A DNA stretch of 47,850 bases from Candidatus Micrarchaeota archaeon (GCA_026413685.1 JAOAKK010000001.1:1-47850), one strand, 5' to 3'; positions 10,778 through 37,869 are shown, numbered from the stretch's first letter. Translations and numbers: made by a program. The notes: generated by a model from the sequence alone, not told the origin.

Positions 10778-11755
10778 TTAGTACCTCATCACATCTAGCA
10801 CGGCGCTTTTTACTTTCCTTTCGTTTGGTATGAAGTATTCTTCGAGCTTTGGCAGCGGCACGGGGACATCATACCCCGTGACACGGAGAATAGGCGCACG
10901 CAGGCTTGTAAGCGCCTTCTCAGCTATGCGCGCAGCAATCTCCGAAGATGCGCTAAACCCTCTCATTGCCTCCTGCACAATCACCAGCCGCCCAGTCTTT
11001 CTTACAGAATCAGCAATCGCCTTGTCATCGAGAGGCTTAATCGCCCTCACATCGATTATTTCACAGCTGATGCCATCATTCCTGAGCTCGTTTGCAGCGT
11101 TTTCTGCAACTCTTACCATTGCGCCCCACGCAACAATAGTAACATCCGCACCTTCACGGGCAATCCTGCATTTGCCTATAGGCAGTGTATACCTGTTCTC
11201 CGGAACATTTTCCTTGAATGCCCTGTAAAGCCTCTTATGCTCAAGGAAAAGGACAGGGTCATCCCACTCAGCGGCAGCTGCAAGAAGCCCTTTTGCTTCA
11301 TAAGGCCCTGAAGGCACAAGTATGGTTATGCCAGGTATGTTTGCAAACATCCCCTCAATGGGCTCGGCGTGAAGCTCAAGCGCGCGCACACCACCGCCAT
11401 AAGGCATCCTGATAATTATGGGCATGCTATACCTGCCACGTGTCCTGTTCCTTATCCTTGCAGCGTGCGCATTAATTTGGTTGTATGCAAGGAAAGAAAA
11501 CCCATCAAATTGTATTTCGGGGATTGGGCGCAACCCGGCGTATGCCATCCCAACAGCAGTCCCTATGATCCCAGACTCTGCAAGCGGCGTGTCAAATACT
11601 CTCTCCTGCCCAAATTTATCCTGAAGGCCATCCGTTACCCTGAATACACCACCATTTTTGCCCACATCCTCCCCGAAAATTACAATTCTCTTATCCCTTT
11701 CCATCTCTTGCGCCAGTGCCATGTTGATTGCCTGAATCATATTAACCTCAGCCAT
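10778..11755 (-). CDS. 2-oxoacid dehydrogenase E1 component, beta subunit
   Basis: Transketolase-like pyrimidine-binding region (VFDTPLAESGIIGTAVGMAYAGLRPI) plus C-terminal domain. Start set at MAEVNMIQAIN. Confidence 0.9.
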   Translation of the reverse strand: MAEVNMIQAINMALAQEMERDKRIVIFGEDVGKNGGVFRVTDGLQDKFGQERVFDTPLAESGIIGTAVGMAYAGLRPIPEIQFDGFSFLAYNQINAHAARIRNRTRGRYSMPIIIRMPYGGGVRALELHAEPIEGMFANIPGITILVPSGPYEAKGLLAAAAEWDDPVLFLEHKRLYRAFKENVPENRYTLPIGKCRIAREGADVTIVAWGAMVRVAENAANELRNDGISCEIIDVRAIKPLDDKAIADSVRKTGRLVIVQEAMRGFSASSEIAARIAEKALTSLRAPILRVTGYDVPVPLPKLEEYFIPNERKVKSAVLDVMRY

Positions 11756-12980: not shown

Positions 12981-14063
12981 TCATTTCGTGCTTATCTGGC
13001 TCACAGGCCTTCTCAGCTCTGCAGGGTCAATACCCTCTTTCATCGCAGCGAGTATGCCCCCAACCTCCCAGTAATTTTGGGCAGCTATGACGCCTTTAAG
13101 CCCAACCTTTTCAGGAGTTGCTTTCATCACAGTTGTGTTTTCCTTGACTGCAATTATTGGTATTTTCCATTTCTGTGCAGCAAGCGCCGGGATGCCACCC
13201 ATGCAGGTATATGGCATTACGACAGCATCAACATCCCATACACTTATGCCACCCTCCGCACCCGCCCGATGCAAGCTTATGTCATCCCTGCTTAGAGGGA
13301 TAAGCCTGGGCGCCCTGTCCAACCCCTGCAGCACGCATCCCAGGTAAGCAGGCCCAATCGCCTCTGCAGCGGCGCGTGGGTCAACCCTGCCGCTATGCGT
13401 TTCCTTATATATCTCATATTTGCTGAGCAACGGTGCGTGTGCAGCAGGCACACCAAACTTTGCAGATATGAGGTGGGATATTATGGCCTCAGTGCCACCG
13501 TAAGGGTTTGCACCCTTCCCTTGGAAATATGCTTTCAAGTCTTTCATATTAATCTTGATTGAAAGCGAGATTGCAAGCGCCTGCGCACCTTTCGATATTG
13601 CGAGCTGGCACGCCTCTAAAAGCGGCTCTTCATTTGTTATCTCTCCCACAAACGACCCGCTGCGTGTCTTGACAGCACGCGCCTCAACAGCCTCCTTCGT
13701 CTTGAATACGCCTGCAATCTCAACACCCGCAACTGTCCTCATCGCATTGATAGTATTTATTGCAAGGTCATAGCTCTCCTTTTCCATTCCTTTATCAAGG
13801 ACCACGCCTATCCTGTTTCTCTCCACTTCACGCAGGGCAACCTCTCCCTTAAAGAACTTATCCAAGGAGTACCCCTCAACATAGAGGACATTTCTTTTTG
13901 CTACGTTAAGCGCAACACCGTTTACTACATTCGGGTGTGAAATCACCCTATCTGCAATCGATGCCATCATATTGGTTGCTGGTGTTGCATCCCCAACATA
14001 ACCGCCTATATCTGCTTTCACACCTGTTGGGACGATGTGTGCAACAATGAACTGGTTTGCCAT
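12981..14063 (-). CDS. Conserved uncharacterised protein (DUF3326-like by recollection)
   Basis: About 360 aa. N-terminal IVPTGVKADIGGYVGDATPA, PYGGTEAIISH, MPYTCMGGIPALAAQ. Start set at ATG 14063, preceded by a GGGTGG SD-like element. No catalytic family recognised. Confidence 0.5.
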   Translation of the reverse strand: MANQFIVAHIVPTGVKADIGGYVGDATPATNMMASIADRVISHPNVVNGVALNVAKRNVLYVEGYSLDKFFKGEVALREVERNRIGVVLDKGMEKESYDLAINTINAMRTVAGVEIAGVFKTKEAVEARAVKTRSGSFVGEITNEEPLLEACQLAISKGAQALAISLSIKINMKDLKAYFQGKGANPYGGTEAIISHLISAKFGVPAAHAPLLSKYEIYKETHSGRVDPRAAAEAIGPAYLGCVLQGLDRAPRLIPLSRDDISLHRAGAEGGISVWDVDAVVMPYTCMGGIPALAAQKWKIPIIAVKENTTVMKATPEKVGLKGVIAAQNYWEVGGILAAMKEGIDPAELRRPVSQISTK

Positions 14064-14079
14064 AATGCCACCCAAACTC

Positions 14080-14286
14080 CTAGCCATTGCCTTTTCGGCT
14101 TTTTGTGGATTGGCCTTCAACACGCATGGATGCATCCACAACAAGGCTCCTGCCTTTTACATCCACGATAGCAAACCTTAGCACTTTTCCATTAACGTTG
14201 GCCCTCAAATACTCTTGTATATAATCCAACAATTGCTCTCCACCTACGTTTTTTCGTGGTATTTCAATCCTGCGTGAGATTATCAT
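14080..14286 (-). CDS. Small hypothetical protein (68 aa)
   Basis: ATG preceded by GAGGGGGGAG (SD-like) and an AT-rich TATA-like stretch. The stop lies 16 nt before the next gene's ATG, an operon-like arrangement. No recognisable family. Confidence 0.4.
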   Translation of the reverse strand: MIISRRIEIPRKNVGGEQLLDYIQEYLRANVNGKVLRFAIVDVKGRSLVVDASMRVEGQSTKSRKGNG

Positions 14287-18059: not shown

Positions 18060-18143
18060 CGCTAGGGGGGAGATTTGAACTCCCGCGGCCTTGCGACCAC
18101 TGGATTAGCAATCCAGCGCCCTACCGGACTAGGCGACCCCAGC
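18060..18143 (-). tRNA. tRNA-Ser (GCU), no intron, no encoded CCA
   Basis: Folded by hand. Acceptor GCUGGGG/CCCUAGC, anticodon arm CUGGA-UUGCUAA-UCCAG, long variable arm UGGUCGCAAGGCCGC, T arm GGGAG-UUCAAAU-CUCCC, discriminator G. Confidence 0.9.
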
Positions 18144-18193: not shown

Positions 18194-18487
18194 GCAGATA
18201 GCTCTGTTTTCTTCCGCTGCACGTGGATTCACCGGGATGGACTGTGCACCAATGTTAAGGCACCCCGCACACCAACTCCCTCCTGTTGGCTTACGGCACG
18301 GCACACAGTGCTTAGGGCTGCTCCTTCCGGCCTAACCCGGTTCACACAATGAGCCGCCGCGTAAGGCAGGAGATCTACGCGGGACGTGCGGACCCGCTCA
18401 CCAGCACACAGCCTCTCCCGGCTTTTCGGCCCCGCCTAAAGGGGATCTGCGGTGACAAGGGACCCCTGGCCCCCCAGCCTATCCGGC
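18194..18487 (-). ncRNA. Signal recognition particle RNA (7S / SRP RNA)
   Basis: Minus-strand AGGCCGGAAGGAGCAGCCCUAAGC matches the conserved helix-8 motif with its GGAA tetraloop. Long helix-5 pairing (GGCUGUGUGCUGGUG with CAUUGGUGCACAGUC). The 5' GCCGGAUAGGCU pairs with the 3' AGCUAUCUGC. TATA about 20 nt upstream and a U-run just downstream. Ends are accurate to about +/-5 nt. Confidence 0.8.
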
Positions 18488-18854: not shown

Positions 18855-21800
18855 ATGAATTATCGTGGGGCAGGTCTGCTCTTTTTGCTGTTGCTCTTTA
18901 TGCTAAGTATGGGCTGCCTTGAAAGCTCAGTCCCACTTGCACAGAAGAAAGCGGTGATTGAGAAGGCCCAGCAGTCGGATACAGATGGGGATGGCATACC
19001 TAACATATGGAAGTATACATTCATGCCACAGGGTGATGGCAGGCTCCAGATATCAAAAGAGATAATAATTGTGGGGATGCAGAAAAACCCGGAGTTTGAA
19101 ATTCAGCCAGCATACAAGAGAGATGAGCAGGCATCATCAACTTATTATGACCTGCTTACAAACCTCGCAACAATAACGCTGAACTGCAACTACGCGCTTG
19201 AAGATGTCATAACAGTATGTGGCACTGAGGCTGAATGCCAGAGCCTCTGCACCTCAAACGTGCGCTGCAACAACGGGTTGAACAAATATCCTGCCCTGAA
19301 CGGCACGCTCTACCAGACAGCAGTTGATTTTTCAAACGTAAAAAGAAAGGCCACGGCGTTGCGTGCTGCCATAGCATCAAAAAGCCAGCTGAGCCAGGCG
19401 GATGTTGATAACATACTGCTCCAGCGTGATGAGCTCACAAAGGCGATAAACCGCCTCCTGTCAGACAAGGCGTTTGACCTTGGCATATGCTCGCAGAATG
19501 AGCTCGTTGTTGCACGCGAGCAGCTTGTACAGCTACAGGGCATATATGTTGAGGATGAGAGTGCAACCAAGGCACAGTATTACACGGCATATTCGAAGTT
19601 TGAGATAACGTCACGCACATCATACCTTTATGATGAGAATGCAATTATAGATGCAGATGAGATAATCCCGGAATCATTTGCCGCCAGGAAGTCTGATATT
19701 ACTTTCTTGACAGTGCCCCCGATATATGTGTCTGACTCAATCCCGCTCACCGCACGGTACCGCGTGAGCTTCAAGAAGCCTTCAGATACCCGCACAGATT
19801 TTGGATATAAGGTTATTGCACCGCCCGCAAACTGGGATTTGGAGATGCAGAAAATAACCTACCCATCCGGCACAATACGTGTGCTTGCCCTTGAAAATAT
19901 AGGTGTGTATGTTGAGGGAAGGGCACTGTTCAATTCTGCGCTTGCAGTGCTTCGCACATACGTTGGCTTTGGGTTTGGCCTTGCATTTGTCTCTTTCATT
20001 GTGCTGCTCATAATATACCTGGTGTATACGCTTCTCCGCCTTGTTTATAATGTGTTTATAAGTGCGAGCAGGCACGAGCCCATAATGGAGGCAGTATACA
20101 GGGTTGCAGGGTATGGTGGCCGTGGAAGGAAAGAGTTCATAATAGCAGCAGCGCTTGCGATTATTGCAGGCTCTTACCTGCTCGCTTCTGCGGGCGAGCC
20201 GAAGACTGATGATGTGGTTGTTGCCCTGGCAACAAGCACGGGCTTGCTTTTAGGTGTCTCGGCTTTTGTGGTAGGCCTTGTGCTATTAGGGTTTGTAATT
20301 GAAGACCTGGTAAAGGCGCGGCTGCTTGGTGAGCGGTATGTCCGTGCCCCTGTTGAGCACGGCATCCGCAAGGTCGTGGTTGAGAAAGAGATGCGTGATG
20401 AGCTTCAGAAGATGCGCAAGGACATAATGTCGCTTAAGGAAAGTGCAGCAGTTGCAGGTGTTATTTTTGATGCACAGCGCATAGACAGGTTTTTTGCAGG
20501 GATTTCAGCAGCTGAAACCAATATGTCCCGTGGCAAGCTTGAGGAAGCAGAGCTTATGCTTGAAAAGGAGCTGCGCAAGGAGTATACGGCCCTGCACGAA
20601 ATGCTCTCAGTGAGCATGGACCAGGAGAAGGTCCTTGAGAAGATGCGTGCCGACGTTGAGGATGAGATTGACCAGCTTGAGCAGTTATACAGGAAGGTTG
20701 CAGGGTATAGCATACGGGTTGAGAAGAAGGACTGGCGTGTAGAGGCTAACAGGTACGCAATAATATATTCAGGGCAGGGATTTGTTGCTGCAAAGAAATA
20801 CCTCGATTCGCTGATGGATACAATACGCCAGGAGCGCAGCTCAATCCAGGCAAGGATGTCCGAGCTTGAGCGCCTTATGCTTACAAAATTCCCGTGCCCG
20901 GTATGCAGCCGCACAACAACCCTTGCTTCTGATAGGTGTGAGAGCTGCGGTGTGCCGCTTGAGGAGGGATTTGCCACGAAGGAAAATGAGCTCAGGCAGG
21001 AGCTTAACGGCCTCTCGGTTGAGCTCAAGGCAAAGAAGATTGCGCGTGGCGACCGGCTCGTGGCATCTGTTGAGACGCTGCTCTCACATATGCGTGAGAA
21101 TGTCAATGCAAAGCAGTATAACAAGGCATACGAGCTGGTAACTACGATTGATGAGAAGATGAAATACCTGCGTGAGATTCTTGGAAAGACGATTGCGCAG
21201 GAGGAAGAGCTGAAACAGCATATTGCAGCAATCGGGAAATACCTTGATTCAATCCCAGCCCTGCTTGCGCAGGCTAAGGAGAACAGCATTGACGTATCGG
21301 CTTATGAGAAGAGGTTTGCCGCTTTTAGCAGCAAGGAAGCGCTTGCACAGCTGCAGCAAATGCCTGTTGAGGAAGCTGTCACGAGGAGCAAAGAGCTTTT
21401 GGATGGCTATGCGCTCATTGAGTCAGAGCTTAAGAATACACTTGCAAAGTTTATGATGTCGGTAAGCGCGTTTGAGCGCGTAAACGAGCTTTTCACGGAA
21501 GTATCGACACTCATCACACGCGGCAAGGGGTATGGGATGAGTGTTGAGGAGTATTCAAAAAGGCTCGGTGCGCTCAATGTTGATTCACTGATAAGCTCTA
21601 TCGAAAGGAATGAGGTGAATGAGAAAGAGCTTGCAAACACAGTCAGCATATTATCTGATATGTCAGCCGAGCTTGGCAAGAAAGTTTCAGCAGCCAGGCA
21701 GTTTTCGGAGCAGCTTGATGCGATAGATGCAAAGCTGCACGAGGCGGGCACGCTTGTTGAGGTATGCAAGAAGAACAATCTTGTGCCTTTTGAGGAAATG

Positions 21801-22511
21801 GAGCGGCTTTATGCCACCAGCACCGAGCCGATAAGAAGCAGGCTTGAAAGGTTCGGTATTGATGAGATTGAGCACATAAAGAATGACATAATAAGCCTGA
21901 ATACAAGGGTTGATTCGATCCTCCTTACCCTGCGCAGGAAAAGTGAGGTGCTATCCGCATGGCCCGGGTGGAAGTCTGCGATTGAGGGCTTGCTCCGCAA
22001 GCAGGAGCGTGTTGATCCTGCAATGCTGAGCACAATACCTCCTGAATGGAGGCCTTGGGTGGTTGAGAGGTTTATAGCTGAGACTGACTTGCCGGTTGCG
22101 CTTGAAGGCAACACGATTGTCAAGCTGAAGCCGATAAAAGGAATTTCAAAATCTGACCTTGACAGCATACTCAAGGAGATGATAGATACACAGCGCATAA
22201 TCGGCGGCATGATTTTGCGCAAGGACGGCCTTGTCATCAGCTCAAACCTGCCAAAAGGAGGGGACCCTGAATCCGTTGCAGCGATGAGCGCAAAGGCTAT
22301 GCAGAAGGCAGAAACTGCCTCGAAAGCGCTCAATAAGGGAGATGTGAATTATGTTGCTTTCAACGCAGCGCTTGGCAAGCAGGTGATTGTGCGTGCAGGC
22401 GAGCAGTCACTTATTCTTGCAATCATAAGGCCGGATGAGGACCTAGGGTTTGTGCTATTGGCAATGAAGAAAGCTGCCGATAGGGTAAAGGAAGTTATTG
22501 ATAAGCTATGA
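18855..22511 (+). CDS. Large membrane protein: signal/lipobox-like N-terminus, ecto-domain, about 3 TM helices, helical-repeat coiled coil with zinc ribbon, C-terminal Roadblock/LC7-like domain
   Basis: N-terminus LLFLLLLFMLSMGC. DTDGDGIPN Ca-binding-like motif. TM helices at about aa 370-500. Heptad-rich region of about 600 aa. CPVC..x12..CESC ribbon (nt 20895-20948). The last ~115 aa (ILRKDGLVISS...AAMSAKA...LILAIIRPDEDLGFVLLAMKKAADRV) read as Roadblock/LC7. Confidence 0.8.
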   Translation: MNYRGAGLLFLLLLFMLSMGCLESSVPLAQKKAVIEKAQQSDTDGDGIPNIWKYTFMPQGDGRLQISKEIIIVGMQKNPEFEIQPAYKRDEQASSTYYDLLTNLATITLNCNYALEDVITVCGTEAECQSLCTSNVRCNNGLNKYPALNGTLYQTAVDFSNVKRKATALRAAIASKSQLSQADVDNILLQRDELTKAINRLLSDKAFDLGICSQNELVVAREQLVQLQGIYVEDESATKAQYYTAYSKFEITSRTSYLYDENAIIDADEIIPESFAARKSDITFLTVPPIYVSDSIPLTARYRVSFKKPSDTRTDFGYKVIAPPANWDLEMQKITYPSGTIRVLALENIGVYVEGRALFNSALAVLRTYVGFGFGLAFVSFIVLLIIYLVYTLLRLVYNVFISASRHEPIMEAVYRVAGYGGRGRKEFIIAAALAIIAGSYLLASAGEPKTDDVVVALATSTGLLLGVSAFVVGLVLLGFVIEDLVKARLLGERYVRAPVEHGIRKVVVEKEMRDELQKMRKDIMSLKESAAVAGVIFDAQRIDRFFAGISAAETNMSRGKLEEAELMLEKELRKEYTALHEMLSVSMDQEKVLEKMRADVEDEIDQLEQLYRKVAGYSIRVEKKDWRVEANRYAIIYSGQGFVAAKKYLDSLMDTIRQERSSIQARMSELERLMLTKFPCPVCSRTTTLASDRCESCGVPLEEGFATKENELRQELNGLSVELKAKKIARGDRLVASVETLLSHMRENVNAKQYNKAYELVTTIDEKMKYLREILGKTIAQEEELKQHIAAIGKYLDSIPALLAQAKENSIDVSAYEKRFAAFSSKEALAQLQQMPVEEAVTRSKELLDGYALIESELKNTLAKFMMSVSAFERVNELFTEVSTLITRGKGYGMSVEEYSKRLGALNVDSLISSIERNEVNEKELANTVSILSDMSAELGKKVSAARQFSEQLDAIDAKLHEAGTLVEVCKKNNLVPFEEMERLYATSTEPIRSRLERFGIDEIEHIKNDIISLNTRVDSILLTLRRKSEVLSAWPGWKSAIEGLLRKQERVDPAMLSTIPPEWRPWVVERFIAETDLPVALEGNTIVKLKPIKGISKSDLDSILKEMIDTQRIIGGMILRKDGLVISSNLPKGGDPESVAAMSAKAMQKAETASKALNKGDVNYVAFNAALGKQVIVRAGEQSLILAIIRPDEDLGFVLLAMKKAADRVKEVIDKL

Positions 22512-24163: not shown

Positions 24164-24313
24164 ATGATGGCAGACAAAAAGAAAGACAAGAAGCCACGTG
24201 TATACAAGAAGGGCCGCGGTTGCCCGCGTTGTGGGTCCGGAACAAAGCTTGCAGAGCACAAGGACAGGTTTTCGTGTGGCAAATGCGGTTATTATGAGAA
24301 AAAGCAGGGTTAA
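24164..24313 (+). CDS. rps27ae: Ribosomal protein S27ae (zinc ribbon)
   Basis: Hand-translated 49 codons: [49 protein letters not shown]. Below the ORF-track size cutoff. The listed ORF 24052..24297 is in another frame. Confidence 0.85.
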
Positions 24314-25040
24314 CAAATCCATCCTTGCACTGCTCGCCGCAGCGTGTATTGTGGTGGTTGCGGCGGCATTATCGTATTTTACAGGGGTTGGCGGGTATTA
24401 CATAGCAGCGGCGCTCACAGTACCAACAGCAATGCTGCTACGGAAAGATGCAGATGCCTTTTTGCTTGTGCTTTTCACAGCACTGCTTGCCATCTGCATG
24501 AGTACTATTGGATATTTTACACCAATGCTATTTTCACTAGTGATGCTTCTCACCCCATTATATTTTCATATGCGCAGTGGCTGCACATTTCCTGAGGCAT
24601 TATCGGCGCTGGGGCTCAAGGGCACGCCCGTGCGTGCATTCATTTTTGCTGTTTTATCAATGATACCAGCAATACTGCTCATATTCCTGCTTTCACAGGC
24701 AGCATACTATTTTGGGTTTAACGATTCAAAAAATGTTGACAGGAAAATAACAGAGCTCCCATTATATGTTCTGCTTTATGCGGTTACAATAGGGCCGATT
24801 GCAGAAGAGGTTTTTTTCCGCTCTTTCTTAACCAAGCATATGGGCCCGCTACTTGCAAACGTATTGTTTGCATTTGCGCATTTTTCATATGGCTCGGTAT
24901 ATGAAATAATCGGTGCGTTTGGCCTTGGCATATTCCTTTACGCATTATTCAGGGTTTCAGGGGACCTTAAAGCCCCCATATTTGCGCACATTTTTATAAA
25001 CGCAGGCTCGCTCTATATCATCAGGTTTATGCAGGTGTGA
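24294..25040 (+). CDS. CPBP-family (CAAX/Abi) intramembrane metalloprotease
   Basis: Motifs [30 protein letters not shown]. Multi-TM. Start trimmed to MRKSRVNK and overlaps the rps27ae end by 20 nt. Confidence 0.8.
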
Positions 25041-28308: not shown

Positions 28309-29610
28309 TCAGATTTCCCCAGTATATTTCTTATAGAGGATAATCAGCACAATGAGCACAACAACTATCCCGGCTGCAAGCGTTGCCATATCAAGCCCGC
28401 CGCCTTTGACTTCGCCCGTGCCGGGCTGTTGCGTGCCGCCATTTCCACTACTGGAGCCATCCTCTTTTGTTATTTTAATGCTGTCTGTAATTGTCCTCAT
28501 ATTCCCCTGTGAATCATAAGCACTGATCTCAAGCAGGATCTGCTTATCGTATACCAGCGGAATCGTTGCCTGGTATGTGCCCTTGCCGGTCTGGTACATC
28601 GTGATGGATTTCCAGCCATCACCGGCGTTATACTTGAGTATCACAGGCTCAGCCGCGCGCAGCCCGCTTGATTTTGGGTTAGGGTCTGATGCAACTACGG
28701 AGATGAATATGGCATTGCTCTTTTCATCCGCAGTTTTTGATGATATGGATACTGCTGGCTCACCCTCATCAATTATGAGCTCGCTGTCAAGGTTTCCTGT
28801 AAGTGCAAAGTTATATGTCCTAAACCCCTTATCATACCTCACGAAGACCTCAATGTTGTCGCTTAGTATATCTGTGAATTTTACATAGCCGAGCTCGTCT
28901 GTGCGCACGGTTTTGCCATCAAGAAGGACATCTGCAGGCACAACCTCGCCTTTATCGTTGAGCACCCTGAACCTTAAGTCGTACCTGTTGAAAACCACCG
29001 TCTTAAAATCATCAGCATCGTTTATTTTTCCCGTTATGGTCCTTTTCTTGCCGCCGTATTCAATAACAATTGTGTAGGTTGCCCCGTTTGGCACTGTTAC
29101 CCATATCTTACCATCCTTTCCTGTTGTATACTCGTTCCCGCTTGAGTAGACTTTTGCACCCTCGATAGGCTTGCCGTTCTGGTCCTGCACCACAATGTTT
29201 GTGCGGTATGCGTCAAAAGTGAACGTCTTCAGGTAAGGCAGCTTGTCATGGCACGTTGCACCCATGCTGCTGCACAGGATTTTCTCGCTCTGCTGGCGCA
29301 GTGTGCTGTAGTTTGCCTTTATGATGTAAAACCTCACTTCGCTTTCTGGTGTTGTAACCATGTTTGCAAATTGGATAATAAGCTTGCCACTCTCGTTCGT
29401 CTTTAATATAATCCTGCCATCAAGTGATGACTCATCGCTTGTTACCGGAAAAGAGCTCTTCTGGTAAAGCAAGGTTACAGTGGCGCCGCTAATCGGCCTG
29501 TCCATCTTATCAACGACATGGACCTCTATTTTCTCAGTCCACGACGCAAAAAGCACGGGTGCTGCAAAAAGCAGCACAAGCAATGCAGCAAGTATGAATG
29601 TCTTTCTCAT
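28309..29610 (-). CDS. Surface protein: signal peptide, repeated CarboxypepD_reg/Ig-like beta domains, Gly/Ser/Thr linker, C-terminal TM anchor
   Basis: MRKTFILAALLVLLFAAPVLFASW. Repeated xVxDxxGxPIxGAxV modules. GSSSGNGGTQQPGTGEVKGGG followed by LAAGIVVVLIVLIILYKK. Confidence 0.65.
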   Translation of the reverse strand: MRKTFILAALLVLLFAAPVLFASWTEKIEVHVVDKMDRPISGATVTLLYQKSSFPVTSDESSLDGRIILKTNESGKLIIQFANMVTTPESEVRFYIIKANYSTLRQQSEKILCSSMGATCHDKLPYLKTFTFDAYRTNIVVQDQNGKPIEGAKVYSSGNEYTTGKDGKIWVTVPNGATYTIVIEYGGKKRTITGKINDADDFKTVVFNRYDLRFRVLNDKGEVVPADVLLDGKTVRTDELGYVKFTDILSDNIEVFVRYDKGFRTYNFALTGNLDSELIIDEGEPAVSISSKTADEKSNAIFISVVASDPNPKSSGLRAAEPVILKYNAGDGWKSITMYQTGKGTYQATIPLVYDKQILLEISAYDSQGNMRTITDSIKITKEDGSSSGNGGTQQPGTGEVKGGGLDMATLAAGIVVVLIVLIILYKKYTGEI

Positions 29611-30454: not shown

Positions 30455-31381
30455 TTATGCAAACTGCCCCTCAATCTCCGGCAGGTCTAAGTCGAGCGTA
30501 TCCTTGAGCTCCTTAAACCTGTTTCTTATTGTAACCTCAGTTATTCCAGCGGCCTCAGCAACTTCCTTCTGTGTCCTGTGCTCTGCGTGGTGGAGGCACG
30601 ATGCGTAAACTGCCGCTGCCGCCAGGCCTGTCGGGCCCCTGCCTGAAATCAGTTTCCTGTCAATCGCATCCTTGAGGATGCTCATTGCGGTCTCCTGCAC
30701 CCTGCCGCTAAGCCCAAGTGCAGTTACAAACCTTGGGACATAGTGAAGTGGGTTTGCGAGAGGCACACCTACACTGAGCTCCTGCACCAGGATCCTGTAT
30801 GTCCTTCCAATGTCCTTCCTCTTTACTCCTGAGACCTGTGCGATCTCGGCAAGTGTCCTTGGCATGTTTCTCTGCCTGCATACTGCATAAATCACAGCCG
30901 CCACGAGCGCTTCAATATTCTTGCCGCGCACGCCTTTCTCAATGCATCTCCTGTACATCAATGCTGCCTCTTCCCTGATTGATTCGTGCAGCCCAAGGTA
31001 GGATGCAATCTTATCAAGCTCGGTCAGCGCAATTGCCAAATTCCTCTCGACAGAGCTCTGGATGCTGCTCCTCTTATGCCATTTTCTCATCCTGTAAAGC
31101 TGTGCCTGCTTCTTTGTGTTAATCTTGACACCGCGAATGTCCCTGTTATACTGGTCTATTTCAGTTGACAGGCCCTTGTTCGGCCTCATAAGCTTTATAG
31201 GTGCACCCGTTCTTGCCCTCTTATCCCTTTGGTCGCTATCGAAAGCCCTCCACTCGGGGCCCTCATCGACCATACTGTCGCTTATGACAAGGCCGCAGGT
31301 AGCGCAGATAAGCTCGCCGCGCTCATAATCCTGTATTATTTTAGAGCCCTTACACTCGGGACATTCTTTTACGGTAGTCAT
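30455..31381 (-). CDS. tfb: Transcription initiation factor B (TFB)
   Basis: N-terminal zinc ribbon CPECKGSKIIQDYERGELICATCG plus two cyclin-like repeats. Start trimmed to MTTVKE. Confidence 0.92.
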   Translation of the reverse strand: MTTVKECPECKGSKIIQDYERGELICATCGLVISDSMVDEGPEWRAFDSDQRDKRARTGAPIKLMRPNKGLSTEIDQYNRDIRGVKINTKKQAQLYRMRKWHKRSSIQSSVERNLAIALTELDKIASYLGLHESIREEAALMYRRCIEKGVRGKNIEALVAAVIYAVCRQRNMPRTLAEIAQVSGVKRKDIGRTYRILVQELSVGVPLANPLHYVPRFVTALGLSGRVQETAMSILKDAIDRKLISGRGPTGLAAAAVYASCLHHAEHRTQKEVAEAAGITEVTIRNRFKELKDTLDLDLPEIEGQFA

Positions 31382-31510
31382 TTTTACACCCTCAACTCCA
31401 ATACAAATATAAAAGTATCTTGCGGGTAATACTCTCTTTAACAAGGTTTATAAATGTTTCTATAACCACACTTCTAGTATTGAAAAAAAGAATAGCAGTT
31501 CCTATTTTTT

Positions 31511-31981
31511 CTACCTTTTTTTTACTTCTCCACTTTCATCAATATAATATCCCCTCAATTTTCCCTGTGTGCCTATATATTGCTTTTCCCCCTTAACAAC
31601 TTCCTTAACAACTTCAGCTGATTTTTGAGGTGTAGCCTTCATTATTTCCCCCTTTTCTCTCTTTTCGTTTTCTTTAGCTATCTTCAATGCAAGCTGAAGA
31701 AGTGGGTCTTTTTTTAACGCTTCTTCGACCCTTTCCGGCGAGTATGATCTAACTGCTTTAATCTGTATTGCAAGTAATCTAGCAGTTTCATCGAGCCGTT
31801 TTGAGGCCTCTTTTAGCTCAAAGTATTTAGATATCTTTTTTAAGAAATTTGCGTCAGTAAATTCCTTTGCAGCCATATTAAATTCATTTAAGGCGTTTTG
31901 AAATTCACCTCTTTTTGGAAAAAGATCTCTTTTTGGAAAATGAACTTCATCTTTTTTTTCTACCAATGTCATAAGTATCAC
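31511..31981 (-). CDS. Hypothetical Lys/Glu-rich helical protein
   Basis: ORF only. Charged, helical composition in an AT-rich segment. Confidence 0.35.
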   Translation of the reverse strand: MILMTLVEKKDEVHFPKRDLFPKRGEFQNALNEFNMAAKEFTDANFLKKISKYFELKEASKRLDETARLLAIQIKAVRSYSPERVEEALKKDPLLQLALKIAKENEKREKGEIMKATPQKSAEVVKEVVKGEKQYIGTQGKLRGYYIDESGEVKKR

Positions 31982-32008
31982 CCATATCTACCTTTTCTAC
32001 AATCATAT

Positions 32009-32860
32009 TTAAAACATATCCTTTGTATGTGGGTTTGCCAATTGGTTGATTATGCTCCCGTCCAAGTACCTCTCATATATCTTCTTGACTGGCTCGGCAA
32101 TCCCAAACTCCTTTAAATCAACGACGGATGAAAACAGCTCGCCAGCAACATAGCTGGTAAATTCTTCTTCTGAGAGTATGTATTTTTTTGAGTCTACCCT
32201 CAATATAATCTCGTATGCTGCGTCGTAATATCTTGCAAGCTGCGGGGTAAGCTTGCCATGGAGCACGTCAAACTGCTCTTTTCTCCCTTTTGTTGCGATC
32301 GAGTATACCTTTTTTGCAAATGCGTTGAACTCCGCCCTCTCCTCATCAGTAAGTACCTCATCATAAATATGGTGCAGGAGCTCGTGCAGCAATACTCCGT
32401 TTCTTGTCTCCGGGTAAACGTGGATTATCTTTTTCTTGTTTTCGTAGTTGCCGCCTATCCCAAGCTCGTGGTCCTTAGTATGGAAGAGGATGCGTAACCC
32501 ATTGAGTTTTTCAAGCAACCTCTCATTATTAGTATTCAGCCCACCAGGCAAAAGGGCAAGGAATTCCTGGATGTTCCGCACATTTCCCTTGTCCCATACT
32601 TTTTTTGCAGTGCCATTCGAATCAATCTTGTATATGCTCGCTTTCCATACAGGATAATTCGTTTCTAAGCATTTATACGCTTGCCAGCTTCCTATGATTG
32701 CAGGAATGCTCATAACCAGCGCAGCCACAGTTTTCATTTTGCTGAATGATTTTTTTCTTTCCTCACGGGTCTCACGAAGCGCCGTTGTAGGCCCTTTGCT
32801 AAAATGAGAACTGGCCTGCATGTATTCCTTTTGTGCTAAGTAGTATATATACCTATCCAT
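32009..32860 (-). CDS. Putative zinc metalloprotease-like protein (HExxHH motif), N-terminal TM/signal anchor
   Basis: LLHELLHHIYDEV (nt about 32357-32386). Hydrophobic MKTVAALVMSIPAIIGSW near the N-terminus. The motif is paralogous to HEYCHHIQDE in 35194..37869. Confidence 0.5.
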   Translation of the reverse strand: MDRYIYYLAQKEYMQASSHFSKGPTTALRETREERKKSFSKMKTVAALVMSIPAIIGSWQAYKCLETNYPVWKASIYKIDSNGTAKKVWDKGNVRNIQEFLALLPGGLNTNNERLLEKLNGLRILFHTKDHELGIGGNYENKKKIIHVYPETRNGVLLHELLHHIYDEVLTDEERAEFNAFAKKVYSIATKGRKEQFDVLHGKLTPQLARYYDAAYEIILRVDSKKYILSEEEFTSYVAGELFSSVVDLKEFGIAEPVKKIYERYLDGSIINQLANPHTKDMF

Positions 32861-32895
32861 AACCGCATTCTATTTTTCCAAAAAGAAAGAAGTAG

Positions 32896-33081
32896 AGCCG
32901 AGGAAGGGATTTGAACCCCTCTCTGCCGGTCACTGATGGGGCACCAAAGGTTCCCCCTCGTGTTTTTCTGGCACCGCTCTTTTGGCAGTTGTGTGCGAGA
33001 GCACACAATTCGCAACCAAAGGTTATGACTCCCAAAAGAACGGCTCTGCAGCCGGCCGCATAGCCACTCTGCCACCTCGGC
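32896..33081 (-). tRNA. tRNA-Cys (GCA) with a 115-nt intron at the canonical 37/38 position
   Basis: Hand fold. Acceptor GCCGAGG/CCUCGGC, discriminator U73 (the tRNA-Cys identity base). Anticodon arm GCCGG-CUGCAG|intron 32931-33045|A-CCGGC. T arm AGGGG-UUCAAAU-CCCUU. Mature length about 71 nt. Confidence 0.8.
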
Positions 33082-33180
33082 GCAGGGAGCCAGCGCCCCC
33101 GCAACCCAGGCAACCATAAAGTTGCCGATTGATTTTTATGGCCGCACAGGCTTTTATTCTTTTATGGGCATCTGAAATAT

Positions 33181-33492
33181 ATGGTCACGATTATATACTC
33201 CCCTTTCCCAAGCTTCAAGTCGGCGAAGGTTGCTGCACGTAGGCTGCTCACGGCCCGTGTAATTGCATGCGCAAACATTGTGAAATCACGCAGCATTTAC
33301 AAATGGAAAGGGACACTTCAAGATACGGTTGAGTTTATCCTCATTGCAAAAACAACATCAAAAAAGAAAAATGAATCAATATCCATAATTAAAAAATCCC
33401 ACCCATACGAGCTTCCGGCAATTCTTACATGGAGCTCTAAGGCAACACCTTCTTTTGAGAAATGGGTTATTGATGAGACCAAGAAGGGCTGA
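33181..33492 (+). CDS. cutA: CutA1 divalent-cation tolerance protein
   Basis: ARRLLTARVIACANIV...SIYKWKGTLQDTVEFILIAKT...HPYELPAILTW. Confidence 0.8.
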   Translation: MVTIIYSPFPSFKSAKVAARRLLTARVIACANIVKSRSIYKWKGTLQDTVEFILIAKTTSKKKNESISIIKKSHPYELPAILTWSSKATPSFEKWVIDETKKG

Positions 33493-33583
33493 TTGGTTTT
33501 TAAGCGTGGCAATTGTAAAAAAGTATAAATATAAGAACAAGGGAAAATGATGTAAAGGCAGAAGCACACGATGTGCGTTAAGG

Positions 33584-34219
33584 ATGATGACAATGGTTAA
33601 TGGGAAAGGAGCAACGACTTATATGCAAGGCAAGATGCAGCAGCCAGACAACAAAAACGGGTTCTCGGCCAAAAAGCCATTGGAAGAGCAGCTTTCATAT
33701 GAGTTTGTTTCAGCGATAGATTCTGCAATAAACAAGTACTATAAAGCCACAGGAAATGGAAGCAATACCAAAAAGGAAAATCCCCAAAATTCCAGCTCCA
33801 GCTATGATATGGAAGCGCTTTTGGATGCAACATTGAAAGCACTCAAAAGCCACCCGCTGCGTGCTGCTGATACATGCACAGCATCGCACAAAGCTACCCA
33901 TTCTTCGGTGGCAAATCCTGAAGTGAGGTCCATCCCTGAAAATGCTCGCGCAAGCATAAAGAGCAGGATTAGTGCGATACGCGTTGAAGTTAATTGGATG
34001 GTTATAAGCTCTTTCAAGTACCGTATTCTTGTCAGGTTTGGCATACCCAACGCTATGAGCTCGATGGTTAAAGTGCTCGATGCAATCGAGGCCGGTGACA
34101 AGAGTGCAGTATCAGAATCAGACTTGGAACGGGTAAAATCAAAAGAGGCATTGTATAGCTTCCTGGAAGAGCTCGCTGATATTGGCGACCCAACCGCATC
34201 ATATTTTATTAAGGGCTGA
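33584..34219 (+). CDS. Hypothetical protein
   Basis: ORF only. Low-complexity polar N-terminal half. No motif recognised. Confidence 0.3.
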   Translation: MMTMVNGKGATTYMQGKMQQPDNKNGFSAKKPLEEQLSYEFVSAIDSAINKYYKATGNGSNTKKENPQNSSSSYDMEALLDATLKALKSHPLRAADTCTASHKATHSSVANPEVRSIPENARASIKSRISAIRVEVNWMVISSFKYRILVRFGIPNAMSSMVKVLDAIEAGDKSAVSESDLERVKSKEALYSFLEELADIGDPTASYFIKG

Positions 34220-34220
34220 G

Positions 34221-35162
34221 TTACTCAGGAGGCGCACCACCCAGCCTTTTCTTTTCAGCCTCAAGCTGCCCATATGCTCTCTTTACTTTCTGCCTATACT
34301 CAAGTGATAGCTTTCCTATACCTTTGTTTTTCTCTTTTGTGCTAATCACTTTGGCAGGCCCTGAATTATACGCTGCGGCAAGCTCATCAATATCCTGTGT
34401 GTTGAGCTGCTTTTGGAGGTATGCAACATATCTTGCAGCATACCTGATTGATAGTGCATAATCAGCCACCGTTTCCTCGTATGGCTTTGCATTTTTGCCA
34501 AGCCCGAGCAATTTGGTTATAGTTTCATAAGTTGGTTTTGTTATCTGCATCAGCCCCCTGGACTCTTTGTTTATGTCTCCTTTCCCAGAGATGGCATTAT
34601 TGTAGAAGTTTGGGTTTTTCTTAAGCCGTTTTCCAACTATATCCAGGGCATTAGTATCGGCCCTTCCGGAATGCTCTGCAACAATCAGTGATGCAATGAA
34701 CAGCGGGTCAACCTTATACATATTTGACCAGTGCATTATCTGTGTCGAGAGGGCATCACCAAACTTCTCAGATAGTGCATTATAATCTATGCTTGTCTTA
34801 TCAACCTGCAATGCGGGCGTAGGTATGGCTTTTTTCCCGGCCACTTTAGGCTTTTCAACAACCGGCACAGTTTTGCCCCCGATGCGTTTTGCAATGGTGA
34901 TTACATAATATTCACGCCCATCAGCATCCTTAGATTTCTTGTTTTTTATGGAAAACTCATTTTCCGGCAAGATTTCCTTAAGCTGTGCAAGTGCATTATT
35001 CATAGAAGCAGGTGTGCCATACCACAATTCAGCATATCTCGTCTTCCCATTGAGTATTTCACGTATGGGCTTTTTTGCAGCTTCAGCCAGCTTTGCCTCT
35101 TCTAGCCGCTGAATTTTGTTTTCTGAGAGTTGCTGTGCCATAGTATACCTATTCAAACCCAT
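34221..35162 (-). CDS. SLT-domain (lytic transglycosylase / goose-lysozyme fold)-like protein, no signal peptide
   Basis: C-terminal half carries the three SLT landmarks in order: catalytic-Glu region LIVAEHSG, SRGLMQITKPTY, and AAAYNSGPAKV. An alternative start is ATG 35141. Confidence 0.65.
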   Translation of the reverse strand: MGLNRYTMAQQLSENKIQRLEEAKLAEAAKKPIREILNGKTRYAELWYGTPASMNNALAQLKEILPENEFSIKNKKSKDADGREYYVITIAKRIGGKTVPVVEKPKVAGKKAIPTPALQVDKTSIDYNALSEKFGDALSTQIMHWSNMYKVDPLFIASLIVAEHSGRADTNALDIVGKRLKKNPNFYNNAISGKGDINKESRGLMQITKPTYETITKLLGLGKNAKPYEETVADYALSIRYAARYVAYLQKQLNTQDIDELAAAYNSGPAKVISTKEKNKGIGKLSLEYRQKVKRAYGQLEAEKKRLGGAPPE

Positions 35163-35164
35163 TG

Positions 35165-35186
35165 CTTATATAGTTTCCTATATAAG
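35165..35186. promoter_or_regulatory. Twin inverted TATA elements in a 31-bp divergent intergenic region
   Basis: CTTATATAG-tttc-CTATATAAG, a perfect 9-bp inverted repeat. It lies between the divergent start codons at 35162 (-) and 35194 (+). Confidence 0.45.
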
Positions 35187-35193
35187 TTATAGT

Positions 35194-37869
35194 ATGAGAT
35201 TCTACTTAGTACTGCTTCTTGTTTTTGCTGGTATCACAGTTGTATATCCGGAAATGGATTATATGGAATGTGCAAGGAATTGTGAGACCATGACAGGCAT
35301 CTGGGCGTGCGACTATGCCTACTGTGCGCTCTATGACATGGCCTCCTACAACGCAATGACGCCGCAGCAGCAGTGCGCATTTGACTGCATATGGGAGTAT
35401 AGGCGGTGCAAGAGCGGGGTGCAGCCAACCGGCAGCGGCTCACAATATTACGAAAATCCAGGTGCTGCCTATCGTGCTGAAAAGGAGGCAACATGCGATA
35501 ATACATACAGGAGCTGTATGGAAGCAAACGAGATAGGTGCGGATTTCTCTGAGCTTGATGATTACTGCGTTAAGAAAGAATCTGACTGCTACACAGCCCT
35601 TCTTGATAAATACTGTAAGCCGGTGCAGGCCTCCTGCGTCACAAAATGCGGCGAGGCAAAGCCGCCCGAGCAGCCTGCCGAGGAGAAAAAGCCGTGCTAT
35701 GGCACAACAACACCACGCGAGTATTGCAATTCTTACTGCAAGTCAAAGCGTGGGAATGATTGCGCGTTCATTGCATATGTGCAGTGGGAGGGCACGGTAA
35801 TTGACTGCTCATGCAACTGCCCAGCTGGCGGTGAGACATATTATAAGATAGACTGCACAAAGCCCCTTCCCCTGGCGCAGCAGGCAACGGACAAGTGCAG
35901 GGGTGTTGAATGCCCCGACAAGTGCGAAGGAGGCATAATGCATACGAAAGGCTCGTGCAATCCAGGCACAGGGGCGTGCACATACAGGGAAGAGCAGTGC
36001 CCGCAAGGATGTGAAGGCAGCACAAAATGCAAGCCTGTGTCAATGCAGGGGGAAGTTTTTTACTATGATTCTTCTGGCAAGAAAGTGCCCTTGAGATTTG
36101 TGAAGATTGAGGCGATCGCAGTAAAAGATTCGCACATCTATGCATATGGCCACCTTTCGACTGATGAGAATGGCAAGTTTGTGTGGGATGACCCGAAAGC
36201 GTTCCAGCCTGGCTATGAGATATCAGTGGAGGTCCTGTTTGATGAGTCAAAAGGCAGGCTATTCCTTGTTGACAACGACCCCACCTTCCCGCTCAGGATT
36301 TTGTATGAAGACAGCATACCTGTTGAAGATAAGCGGCTTTCAAATTACCAGATGGACCTAACAAGCCATAAAGTGCAGGCACTTTCGGATGCAGCAAAGG
36401 TTTTCGTGACGGCACAGAAGGCAGTTGAGTTCAAGGAAAAAGTGTTCAAAAAATCCCAAACCGTTAAAGAGCGGGTTTTCGTGCATAACCCAGGCGGCAA
36501 TTCACACATCTCAGAAGTTTGGAAAGATGAGGACCCAAGCGCACCAGGGATGCGCCTGCTTGAGATGAGCTCTTCCTTTACCTCCTCATACATCGAAGAT
36601 ACAATATACCACGAGTACTGTCACCACATACAAGATGAGCTGTTCAACACAAAGGAGAGCCATCGCGGTAAGGATCACGGTGGCTATTACACAAACCCGG
36701 ATTCTGGCTGGGGCCTTGTTGAGGGATGGGCAGAATATTGTGCGTGGGAGATGAAGAATTACTACAAGGATAACCCAGATTACGACCTCTACCGCATACG
36801 TGGTGTTGCGTTTAACCTTGAGCTGAATTACCAGATGCGCGAGAAAGTATTCCGCGAGAAGAATATCTATAGCACACCCAGCGTGATGGAAGAGATGGCA
36901 ATTGCATCATTACTGGTAGACCTGCGTGATTCGCCACAGTCGCGTGGTGGCATGGATGACGATTTCGTATCCATCCCAATATCAACACTGATGGATGCAT
37001 ACTCACAAAAGCGCGATTTTGGTGATGGGGAAGGCGCAAGGCACGTGAAAACGCTGCGGGACCTTTATGTTGCACTCAAGGAGTCCGGCTACAAGCCGTT
37101 GCTTGAGTATTATGATAAGGACAAGAAGATAACACAGCTTGACAAGATATTCATAATGCACGGCGCATACCAGGACCTAAACAAGAACGGCAGGTGGGAT
37201 GATGGTGAGCCGCCCGGATATTCAGGAAACGGCGCTGCAGCTTCTGAATACAGGAGCGATCTTGAAGCGCTCAACGGCAGTGAAGTGGTTCTTGCGCTTG
37301 TTGACCAGGATGGCAGCCCAATAAAGGAAGGTGTAATGGTGCACGTTGATGTTAAGTTCAGTGGTGATAATGCATACTTATCATATTCCTATGATGTTCC
37401 GGTTTCTGAGGGTGCACTTTATATCCCATACCCGCCACGCGAGTATGATGCAACGATAACGATGTATGCATACCAGCCAGGCACAGGCAGCAGGGCGGCA
37501 GAGCAGCTTGTATTAACAACACAGGAATTCTATGATAAGGTGGACGGCAGCAAGCCGATAGGCACATACTCCGCTAAAGTTACTGTGCAGAAGAACGTCC
37601 CGTGCAAAGAAGACTATGAGTGTGTTTACAAAGGGCAGGGATTATCCTGCAGGAGCGGCTTGTGCACTGCCCAGCCGGCCAAAGCCTCATCGGGCTTGCC
37701 TCAAGGGACAGGCATGTGCAACGCAAACAGCGATTGCGGCCAGGGCTATGTGTGTGAAGCCCATAAATGTGCCAGCAAGGAGGAGCCATCAGGGTTGTGC
37801 CTGGTCCTTCCAGCGCTAGTTGGTCTGGCTGCTGCTGGCAGCGTTGCACTGCGGCGCACAACCAGGTAA
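35194..37869 (+). CDS. Large Cys-rich secreted/surface protein with HExxHH metalloprotease-like motif and C-terminal hydrophobic anchor
   Basis: Signal peptide MRFYLVLLLVFAGITVVYP. About 290-aa Cys-rich N-terminal region. IYHEYCHHIQDEL (nt 36610-36639). Two small Cys-knot-like modules, then GLCLVLPALVGLAAAGSVALRRTTR, which resembles archaeosortase-type C-terminal sorting signals. Start trimmed from 35116. Confidence 0.7.
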   Translation: MRFYLVLLLVFAGITVVYPEMDYMECARNCETMTGIWACDYAYCALYDMASYNAMTPQQQCAFDCIWEYRRCKSGVQPTGSGSQYYENPGAAYRAEKEATCDNTYRSCMEANEIGADFSELDDYCVKKESDCYTALLDKYCKPVQASCVTKCGEAKPPEQPAEEKKPCYGTTTPREYCNSYCKSKRGNDCAFIAYVQWEGTVIDCSCNCPAGGETYYKIDCTKPLPLAQQATDKCRGVECPDKCEGGIMHTKGSCNPGTGACTYREEQCPQGCEGSTKCKPVSMQGEVFYYDSSGKKVPLRFVKIEAIAVKDSHIYAYGHLSTDENGKFVWDDPKAFQPGYEISVEVLFDESKGRLFLVDNDPTFPLRILYEDSIPVEDKRLSNYQMDLTSHKVQALSDAAKVFVTAQKAVEFKEKVFKKSQTVKERVFVHNPGGNSHISEVWKDEDPSAPGMRLLEMSSSFTSSYIEDTIYHEYCHHIQDELFNTKESHRGKDHGGYYTNPDSGWGLVEGWAEYCAWEMKNYYKDNPDYDLYRIRGVAFNLELNYQMREKVFREKNIYSTPSVMEEMAIASLLVDLRDSPQSRGGMDDDFVSIPISTLMDAYSQKRDFGDGEGARHVKTLRDLYVALKESGYKPLLEYYDKDKKITQLDKIFIMHGAYQDLNKNGRWDDGEPPGYSGNGAAASEYRSDLEALNGSEVVLALVDQDGSPIKEGVMVHVDVKFSGDNAYLSYSYDVPVSEGALYIPYPPREYDATITMYAYQPGTGSRAAEQLVLTTQEFYDKVDGSKPIGTYSAKVTVQKNVPCKEDYECVYKGQGLSCRSGLCTAQPAKASSGLPQGTGMCNANSDCGQGYVCEAHKCASKEEPSGLCLVLPALVGLAAAGSVALRRTTR

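Follow-up and report, generated by a model that had tools for sequence, protein, structure and literature searches.

Micrarchaeota in cultivation are known to partner wall-less Thermoplasmatales, and GH23 enzymes that have no signal peptide are typical of phage endolysins and virion proteins. Elsewhere among the DPANN archaea, giant extracellular SLT-domain proteins of up to ~3,000 amino acids (aa) occur in Woesearchaeota and Pacearchaeota, where they have been read as tools for interaction with bacteria (PMC8204110, PMC9723730); we found no report of an SLT-domain protein for Micrarchaeota in the literature. In the M4, M13 and M36 metallopeptidases the Glu of an ExxxD motif is the third zinc ligand (PMC6117016), and Cys-containing tripartite C-terminal signals (MYXO-, JDVT-, Synerg- and CGP-CTERM) have been proposed as substrates of CPBP/Rce1-like proteases (bioRxiv 10.1101/2023.06.07.544157). 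Here we analyse a 47,850-nucleotide (nt) stretch of DNA from a Candidatus Micrarchaeota archaeon (GCA_026413685.1, JAOAKK010000001.1:1-47850; hereafter the window), in which a Cys-rich surface protein of 891 aa, an SLT/GH23-fold protein and a 283-aa protein with an HExxH motif are encoded around a tRNA-Cys gene. An earlier note on this DNA had suggested that they may be a horizontally acquired toolkit for attacking or remodelling cell envelopes. The neighbourhood is real and was correctly spotted, but it was over-interpreted. We give about an even chance to the reading that it is a vertically inherited, lineage-specific set for envelope functions or interaction with a partner, made up of a surface gluzincin, an active GH23 glycan cleaver and a small HExxH protein.

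A candidate gluzincin domain in the 891-aa surface protein

The start codon of the 891-aa protein is ATG 35194, as in the public record, and not TTG 35116. This start gives a hydrophobic, signal-like N-terminus, and shortens the protein from the 917 aa that had been assumed. No match to the protein was found in Pfam, NCBIfam or PHROGs. The motif HEYCHHIQDE lies within it as the earlier note had described (Table 1), and among the nine close homologues the motifs HEYCHHIQ-E, DHGGY and EGWAE(Y/F)CA are all invariant.

The central domain belongs to a much larger family. An exhaustive search with a hidden Markov model (HMM) of residues 380-700 recovered 496 cluster representatives at E<=1e-3, 208 of them at E<=1e-10, the clusters having been defined at 50% identity. 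Four of 20 sampled family members carried a taxon name, two from Micrarchaeota and two from Altiarchaeota. Across 28 diverse members, ten positions are invariant (H94, E95, H98, H116, N122, E131, E164, E187, D197 and D200 in the numbering of the alignment, A6). In the 891-aa protein, H473, E474, H477 and the stretch E510-G-W-A-E514 are invariant in close and diverse members alike.

We searched the PDB with profiles made from these alignments. The narrow alignment of the large-protein family (A1) was unhelpful, whereas the 28-member profile matched fungalysin, an M36 peptidase (7qp3_A, E=6e-4, 22 bits; 4k90_A, E=0.039). In the fungalysin alignment HExxH is paired with HEYTH and EGWAEF with EGWGDF, and the upstream subdomain is also aligned (profile positions 13-156). 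Weak SprT-like and DUF885 matches fall on the same stretch. The domain is not M36 proper, since Pfam M36 gives no match to it at E<=10 and no FTP/PepSY propeptide is present. When 54 diverse members were scanned, no Pfam peptidase family covered the domain, the sole peptidase match being M23 in one member; the accessory domains found among them are extracellular (CarboxypepD_reg, Big, PKD, dockerin, cohesin and LRR).

Because the motifs are invariant, the profile matches M36, and the Glu of ExxxD is the third ligand in M4, M13 and M36, we take the domain to be a thermolysin-like gluzincin from an undescribed, Pfam-less family. Zinc in the 891-aa protein would be bound by both His residues of HEYCH together with the leading Glu of EGWAE. 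The zincin assignment proposed for the large protein is in this way supported by the profile match, in which both the HExxH and the EGW motifs are aligned.

The regions on either side of this domain were also analysed. The earlier note had described a signal peptide, an N-terminal domain with more than 30 Cys, two small Cys modules and a C-terminal hydrophobic segment. The signal-like N-terminus, the modules and the hydrophobic segment were all recovered, but residues 1-285 hold exactly 30 Cys. The Cys-rich region is followed by a beta-sandwich for which Foldseek returned transthyretin, HIU hydrolase and Ole e 1 folds at probability 0.9-1.0. The two 4-Cys modules show only a weak resemblance to a scorpion toxin (E=0.09).

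The C-terminal tail resembles Cys-containing sorting signals

The 891-aa protein ends in a tripartite tail of Cys, hydrophobic segment and basic cluster (Table 1). A Cys stands 14-19, and mostly 16-19, residues before the basic cluster in ~39 of the 41 tailed members of the close half of the family, as read by hand; a script counted the Cys tail in 36 of the 66 proteins that have a tail. Among close members this Cys is often part of CC, CCG or CGP (proteins P0008-P0051), whereas distant members have plain transmembrane tails without it. One distant member, P0042 (ICGPAFVLAGVLLVGIFIRK), scores 19.0 bits with the CGP_CTERM model, for which the cut-off is 21.

The tail had been likened to archaeosortase-type signals, a comparison that does not hold: there is no PGF motif, and the PGF_CTERM model reaches 13.6 bits in one orthologue against a cut-off of 24.5. 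By its sequence the tail appears to have more in common with the CGP/MYXO-CTERM class than with signals of the PGF/archaeosortase type. No archaeosortase gene was found among the genes scanned on the contig, which is the only part of the genome covered. The contig does encode a CPBP/Rce1-like intramembrane protease, and this enzyme may process the tail.

A conserved SLT/GH23 protein without an export signal

The gene divergently transcribed from that of the surface protein encodes an SLT-domain protein. Its match to PF01464 (41.6 bits, E=1.1e-10) exceeds the cut-off of 21.3 bits, and a match to the same family is also precomputed for seven of seven orthologues. The motifs AEHSG, GLMQIT and AYNSG, picked out beforehand as SLT landmarks, are present, and the assignment is backed by Pfam, by the invariance of the motifs and by the predicted fold. 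The protein is rare. Only seven clusters were found among 5.8 billion proteins, and both of those with a taxon name come from Micrarchaeota/Micrarchaeia metagenome-assembled genomes, the others being metagenome proteins.

Down to 36% identity, the seven orthologues share A155-E156-x-S158, L197/Q199, A257-Y258-N259-x-G261 and a late Tyr. In a PDB profile search the helix VDPLFIASLIVAE was aligned with the goose lysozyme helix that ends in RES, placing Glu156 opposite the Glu of RES, which we take to be the catalytic Glu73. Since the full set of GH23 catalytic motifs is invariant down to 36% identity, conservation argues for retained enzymatic function.

An AlphaFold2 (AF2) model with a predicted local distance difference test (pLDDT) score of 80.9 comprises an alpha/beta N-terminal domain (residues 1-85), a disordered linker (88-109) and a helical domain (118-301). 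Foldseek matched the model to Slt/MltF structures (5ohu, 6fbt and MltF) at probability 1.00, with a template modelling (TM) score of 0.41 over the whole query, ~190 aligned columns and an E-value of only ~1e-2.

None of the seven orthologues has a signal peptide or a transmembrane segment, the earlier note having already remarked on the missing signal peptide of the window protein, and an in-frame stop lies upstream of the longest SLT open reading frame (ORF). With no export signal, the protein must either be released or transferred by a non-classical route before it acts, or meet its substrate inside the cell.

The starts of the SLT and protease genes are separated by a 52-nt gap that holds a perfect inverted repeat of TATA-like boxes (Table 1). 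In the related locus L001 a looser A/T-rich pair occupies the same place, and in L003 the SLT gene has a TATA-like box of its own. The inverted repeat may represent two back-to-back TATA boxes that serve as promoters for divergent, nearly leaderless transcripts.

The 283-aa HExxH protein is a separate candidate

The motif HELLHHIYDE of the 283-aa protein had been taken, together with HEYCHHIQDE, as a sign that the two proteins are paralogues. Both 10-mers are present, and they contain the only HExxH motifs in the 48 ORFs of the contig (14,351 aa). Paralogy, however, is not supported. The 10-mers share seven of ten identities, a figure matched or exceeded in 13 of 300 shuffles of the 283-aa protein. 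BLASTP of the 283-aa against the 891-aa protein returned only an 18-aa stretch at E=0.021, and hhalign gave a probability of 2% against A1 and 5% against the diverse catalytic domain (A6). Nor is the extended motif kept among orthologues of the 283-aa protein: at 40% identity it reads HESLHFIYKN, leaving H-E-x-x-H-x-I-Y, and the residues invariant down to that identity are H159, E160, H163, I165 and Y166. On the BLASTP, shuffle, hhalign and conservation results together, the two proteins are not demonstrably paralogous. The 283-aa protein has no match in Pfam, NCBIfam, PHROGs, PADLOC or the PDB, and its family is confined to the clade, with three extra loci in a metagenome scan.

Table 1. Coordinates of the features discussed, counted from the first nucleotide of the window.
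Feature	Position	Strand	Remarks
891-aa secreted, Cys-rich, C-terminally anchored protein (N3G76_00240, hypothetical)	35194..37869	+	41 Cys; 9 close homologues
Cys-rich N-terminal region, residues 24-285	35263..36048	+	30 Cys, mostly invariant; AF2 model low-confidence, mostly helical
Beta-sandwich, transthyretin/prealbumin-like, residues ~286-400	36049..36393	+	AF2 pLDDT 83-92
Putative gluzincin catalytic domain, residues 380-700	36331..37293	+	HExxH at 36610-36624; EGWAE at 36721-36735
Motif HEYCHHIQDE	36610-36639	+	within the 891-aa protein
Two 4-Cys modules, residues 804-824 and 842-859	37603..37770	+	same kind of module in the 477-aa SLT neighbour of L003
C-terminal tripartite tail CLVLPALVGLAAAGSVALRRTTR	37798..37869	+	Cys869 invariant, abuts hydrophobic segment, then basic cluster RRTTR
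SLT/GH23-fold protein, 306 aa from ATG 35141	34221..35141	-	longest ORF reaches 35162; Glu156 at 34674-34676
Perfect 9-bp inverted repeat CTTATATAG-TTTC-CTATATAAG	35165..35187		read from sequence; between divergent SLT and protease genes
283-aa protein, probable N-terminal membrane anchor ~45-60	32009..32860	-	HExxH residues 159-163 at 32372-32386
Motif HELLHHIYDE	32357-32386	-	within the 283-aa protein
tRNA-Cys(GCA) with 118-nt intron	32896-33081	-	Rfam RF00005, 39.3 bits
211-aa clade-specific hypothetical protein	33584..34219	+	C-terminal half conserved
CutA1 homologue	33181..33492	+	PF03091, E=5.6e-24; neighbourhood anchor, in L001, L003 and L012
156-aa Lys/Glu-rich conserved hypothetical protein	31511..31981	-	contig's most deviant gene in composition; no family match
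CPBP/Rce1-like intramembrane protease	24198..25040	+	PF02517, E=1.4e-12; syntenic in L001, L003 and L005
433-aa surface protein	28309-29610	-	CarboxypepD_reg-like domains, signal peptide, plain Cys-less C-terminal membrane anchor
1218-aa ORF	18855-22511	+	sole Pfam match a C-terminal Roadblock/LC7 domain
DUF3326 protein	12981-14144	-	Pfam E=6e-100; beside 2-oxoacid dehydrogenase genes

Gene order is conserved around a variable slot

We compared the neighbourhood with related loci in which the SLT protein is 70%, 41%, 40% and 36% identical to that of the window. The recurring order is NurA, a variable slot, CutA1, tRNA-Cys, the 283-aa homologue, the 156-aa homologue, TFB, a GTPase and the CarboxypepD_reg surface protein, the last of these being retained after TFB and the GTPase in all relatives that were examined. 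The locus at 36% identity, L010, keeps only part of this order: its SLT gene lies upstream of the TFB-GTPase-surface-protein block, and CutA1 was not called.

The tRNA-Cys gene reported within the patch is confirmed by Rfam, with an intron; ARAGORN missed it, and Rfam in turn missed tRNA-Cys in L001 and L006. In L001 (7992-8232, + strand) the exons are conserved and the intron is ~172 nt, and in L003 (~11130-11264, - strand) the intron is ~65 nt and the gene is flipped with respect to the genes around it.

Variation between lineages is limited to the slot between NurA and CutA1. In the window, L001, L002 and L006 it contains the protease, the SLT and the 211-aa genes; in L003-L005 a 65-aa ORF, a 477-aa secreted protein with Cys modules and the SLT; in L012 the protease and an unrelated 268-aa gene, without the SLT; and in L010 a 623-aa secreted protein of repeated Cys modules upstream of the SLT, a 60-aa membrane ORF, the SLT and an ABC-2 exporter. 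In L013 the protease is encoded elsewhere in the genome, again without the SLT. In the most distant lineage (L010, 177-6079; L011, 1934-6690) an ORF of 60-61 aa with one transmembrane segment lies directly upstream of the SLT gene, which is followed by an ABC-2 type exporter (ATPase and permease). The small ORFs upstream of the SLT gene in L003 and L010 are unrelated to one another, and neither the 477-aa protein of L003 nor the 268-aa protein of L012 shows homology to the protease domain, the SLT or the 211-aa protein. The 211-aa protein has orthologues in L001 and L002 (40-43% identity), is absent from L003 and L012, and has no match in Pfam, NCBIfam, PHROG or PADLOC. Because the contents of the slot differ between lineages, the SLT and the protease do not form an obligate pair.

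An alternative is that the slot is simply permissive and its occupants unrelated neighbours: an ordinary peptidase, a cytoplasmic SLT-fold protein that is non-catalytic or acts on something other than murein, and an unrelated 283-aa protein. The occurrence of the SLT and the protease each without the other in several lineages speaks for such an account, and the separate TATA-like box of the SLT gene in L003, the missing export signal and the weak Foldseek matches of the SLT N-terminal domain to a small DNA-binding protein are in keeping with it. However, a secreted Cys-rich protein adjoins the SLT in all three architectures seen, the divergent region in the window is only 52 nt long and carries the perfect inverted pair of TATA-like boxes, and a non-catalytic role sits poorly with GH23 motifs that are invariant down to 36% identity. 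We regard the unrelated-neighbours account as possible but rather doubtful.

Composition deviates but does not mark a recent island

In 1-kb windows within 31.0-35.5 kb the G+C content (GC) averages 0.430, as compared with 0.479 over the whole contig (z -2.2), the lowest value anywhere on the contig being 0.377 at 31251, and the tetranucleotide distance has its contig-wide peak at 31.0-34.5 kb (z +3.0 to +3.3). The AT-richness claimed from spot counts is thus real over about 31.0-35.2 kb, as sliding-window GC and tetranucleotide analysis show, but it does not extend to the gene of the 891-aa protein, which is compositionally typical (GC 0.497) and has the lowest codon-usage distance among the genes of the contig. 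Most of the low-GC signal comes from the 156-aa gene (GC 0.35; GC at third codon positions, GC3, 0.27), with a lesser contribution from the SLT gene (GC3 0.42). The bias of both genes recurs in L001 and L003. Since the 156-aa orthologues in these loci are equally AT-rich (GC3 z -2.0 and -2.8), the bias of this ORF is a conserved property of the gene.

These data bear on the proposal that the patch is an island, acquired from a bacterium, a virus or a conjugative element beside the tRNA-Cys gene and forming a single attack toolkit. It is here that GC and tetranucleotides deviate most, a tRNA gene lies in the middle, SLT domains are typical of bacteria and phages, and what fills the slot between NurA and CutA1 changes from lineage to lineage. 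Against this, the gene order, tRNA included, is common to relatives whose SLT proteins are 36-70% identical, the same genes are AT-rich there, and no gene of the contig is more typical in codon usage than that of the protease. The family scan of the window found no integrase or transposase, no att-like repeat of the tRNA-Cys was found, and the SLT protein has no relatives in phage, plasmid or viral-contig collections. The earlier note had held that conserved synteny combined with an unremarkable composition would speak against acquisition: the synteny is conserved, whereas the composition nevertheless deviates over 31.0-35.2 kb. An acquired toolkit is very unlikely in our estimation, and a recent island or prophage is largely ruled out. 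The neighbourhood is neither a recent island nor the remnant of a mobile element because it is syntenic in relatives, its AT bias is conserved, integrase and att repeat are lacking, the SLT protein has no phage, plasmid or viral relatives, and core chromosomal genes flank it. The ancestor of the clade may still have gained the SLT domain by an ancient transfer.

We think it scarcely credible that the SLT gene is a domesticated, endolysin-like gene whose product leaves the cell by way of a small membrane protein in the manner of phage lysis cassettes: the model does match phage LT_GEWL proteins in Foldseek (probability 1.0, E only ~1e-2) and the one-transmembrane ORF precedes the gene in L010 and L011, but there is no small membrane ORF in the window, L001 or L003, no other viral gene lies nearby, and in addition to the empty search of phage and viral collections the PHROG matches are marginal (E=1.4e-3 to 7.7e-3). 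A defence system was also considered and set aside, there being no PADLOC matches.

The wider contig

The source organism is a small Micrarchaeon of hot-spring type, and the window is one complete contig of its metagenome-assembled genome. Pfam and library scans show the contig to be chromosomal, with SufBD and a cysteine desulfurase, the E1, E2 and E3 components of a 2-oxoacid dehydrogenase, and further core genes (FttA, topoisomerase VI-B, a proteasome subunit, Kae1, PTH2, NurA and TFB).

Two further observations concern other parts of the window. The contig's second-largest deviation in tetranucleotides (z ~2, 19.5-23.5 kb) falls on the 3' half of the 1218-aa ORF. The signal recognition particle (SRP) RNA at 18232-18486 (- strand), which directly adjoins tRNA-Ser(GCU) at 18060-18143 (- strand), is scored by Rfam with the Bacteria_large_SRP model (79 bits) despite the archaeal organism.

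A model for the surface protein and its neighbours

If the neighbourhood is a vertically inherited envelope and partner-interaction set, the 891-aa protein would be exported by the Sec pathway by means of its N-terminal signal, carrying a disulfide-rich N-terminal region and a transthyretin-like beta-sandwich. Its gluzincin domain would be presented outside the cell, with zinc held by the ligands proposed above. Anchoring at the surface would be through the C-terminal Cys, transmembrane segment and Arg tail, as in the Cys-containing CTERM class, and the Cys would probably be modified and the tail cut back by a protease of the CPBP/Rce1 type, for example that encoded at 24198-25040. The likely job of the protein would be cleavage of proteins at the surface or at the contact with a partner, for the supply of peptides or the remodelling of surfaces. 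The SLT protein, divergently transcribed from the putative back-to-back TATA boxes and perhaps co-regulated with the protease, would with its intact catalytic Glu most likely cleave beta-1,4-linked amino-sugar strands of the murein type. The 283-aa protein would be a separate, probably membrane-anchored, small zincin candidate, and the three proteins may act jointly.

Several observations weigh against this set. The AF2 model of the 891-aa protein has a pLDDT of 59 and was good enough for Foldseek only in the beta-sandwich, with values of 30-60 in the catalytic domain, whose fold is read from sequence profiles; the M36 match is marginal at its 22 bits, and the fifth residue of the EGWAE zinc motif is Glu where Asp would be expected (ExxxE). 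For the 891-aa protein and its orthologues, every curated CTERM model scores below its cut-off (PTPA-CTERM, 9.6 and 12.1 bits; PGF_CTERM as given above). The CPBP gene scores 18 bits (E ~2e-3) with the MrtS and MrtJ models of NCBIfam, for which the cut-offs are 130 and 75, and CPBP genes average ~3 per genome among genomes that have any (Haft, bioRxiv 10.1101/2023.06.07.544157). Co-occurrence of the SLT and the protease is loose, L012 and L013 having the protease without the SLT and L003, L005 and L010 the SLT without the protease. With no signal peptide or transmembrane segment in any of the seven SLT orthologues, an extracellular role for the SLT is hypothetical, and its substrate in a wall-less archaeal setting is a further weak point of the reading.

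A conserved, apparently functional cleaver of murein-type glycans in a Micrarchaeal clade raises the question of its substrate and its partner. One bolder extension is that the signal-less SLT breaches bacterial murein, delivered by a non-classical route in company with, or under the guidance of, the adjacent secreted Cys-rich surface proteins, and that the tails belong to an undescribed DPANN system of Cys-CTERM/CPBP sorting. We consider this extension quite unlikely; if it is true, the cells with which these Micrarchaeia interact, or on which they feed, would be bacteria and not wall-less archaea. The protease family, for its part, is sizeable, uncharacterised and Pfam-less, and with the shared Cys tail it offers a testable family and sorting signal for DPANN surface biology. 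Both the signal-less SLT and this Cys-tailed family are worth experimental follow-up.

Comparison with known systems

The SLT protein resembles GH23/SLT enzymes such as Slt70, P. aeruginosa Slt, MltF and goose lysozyme in its Pfam match, in a helix ending in Glu (VDPLFIASLIVAEHSG), in the GLMQ and AYNxG motifs and the late Tyr, and in its fold. It differs from them in having neither signal peptide nor lipobox, and in reading E-x-S where they have E-S. It also carries an insert of ~20 residues that separates the Glu from GLMQ, as a result of which Pfam aligns only profile positions 27-109. Its 85-residue N-terminal alpha/beta domain is novel, its host is an archaeon, and the family numbers no more than the seven clusters found. 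With the SLT proteins of Woesearchaeota and Pacearchaeota it shares the character of a murein-type lytic transglycosylase in a DPANN archaeon, but it is a signal-less protein of 306 aa from Micrarchaeia.

The gluzincin domain shares with M36 fungalysin (7qp3, 4k90) an HExxH motif followed ~30 residues later by E-G-W, an alignable N-terminal subdomain and secretion. In contrast to M36 and M4 it has no Pfam match, has ExxxE, and carries an additional invariant DHGGY/NHGGY between the zinc motifs; unlike M36 peptidases, the window protein has no FTP/PepSY propeptide and is anchored at its C-terminus, and the named members of its family are archaeal.

The tail has the tripartite layout, the Cys and the terminal Arg/Lys cluster of CGP-CTERM (Thermococcales) and MYXO-CTERM signals, together with a CPBP/Rce1-like gene in the genome. 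Instead of C-G-P, however, members of the close clade have (P/S)-x-C-L-V/I-L-P and the family at large has CC-G, no curated model recognises it at cut-off, and the CPBP gene is not MrtA, MrtS or MrtJ. With PGF-CTERM and archaeosortase A it has in common a hydrophobic segment and a basic tail on an archaeal surface protein, one difference being the lack of the PGF motif. The locus involves no new principle: the GH23 enzyme, the MA(E) zincin and the Cys-containing CTERM signal are all variants of kinds already known.

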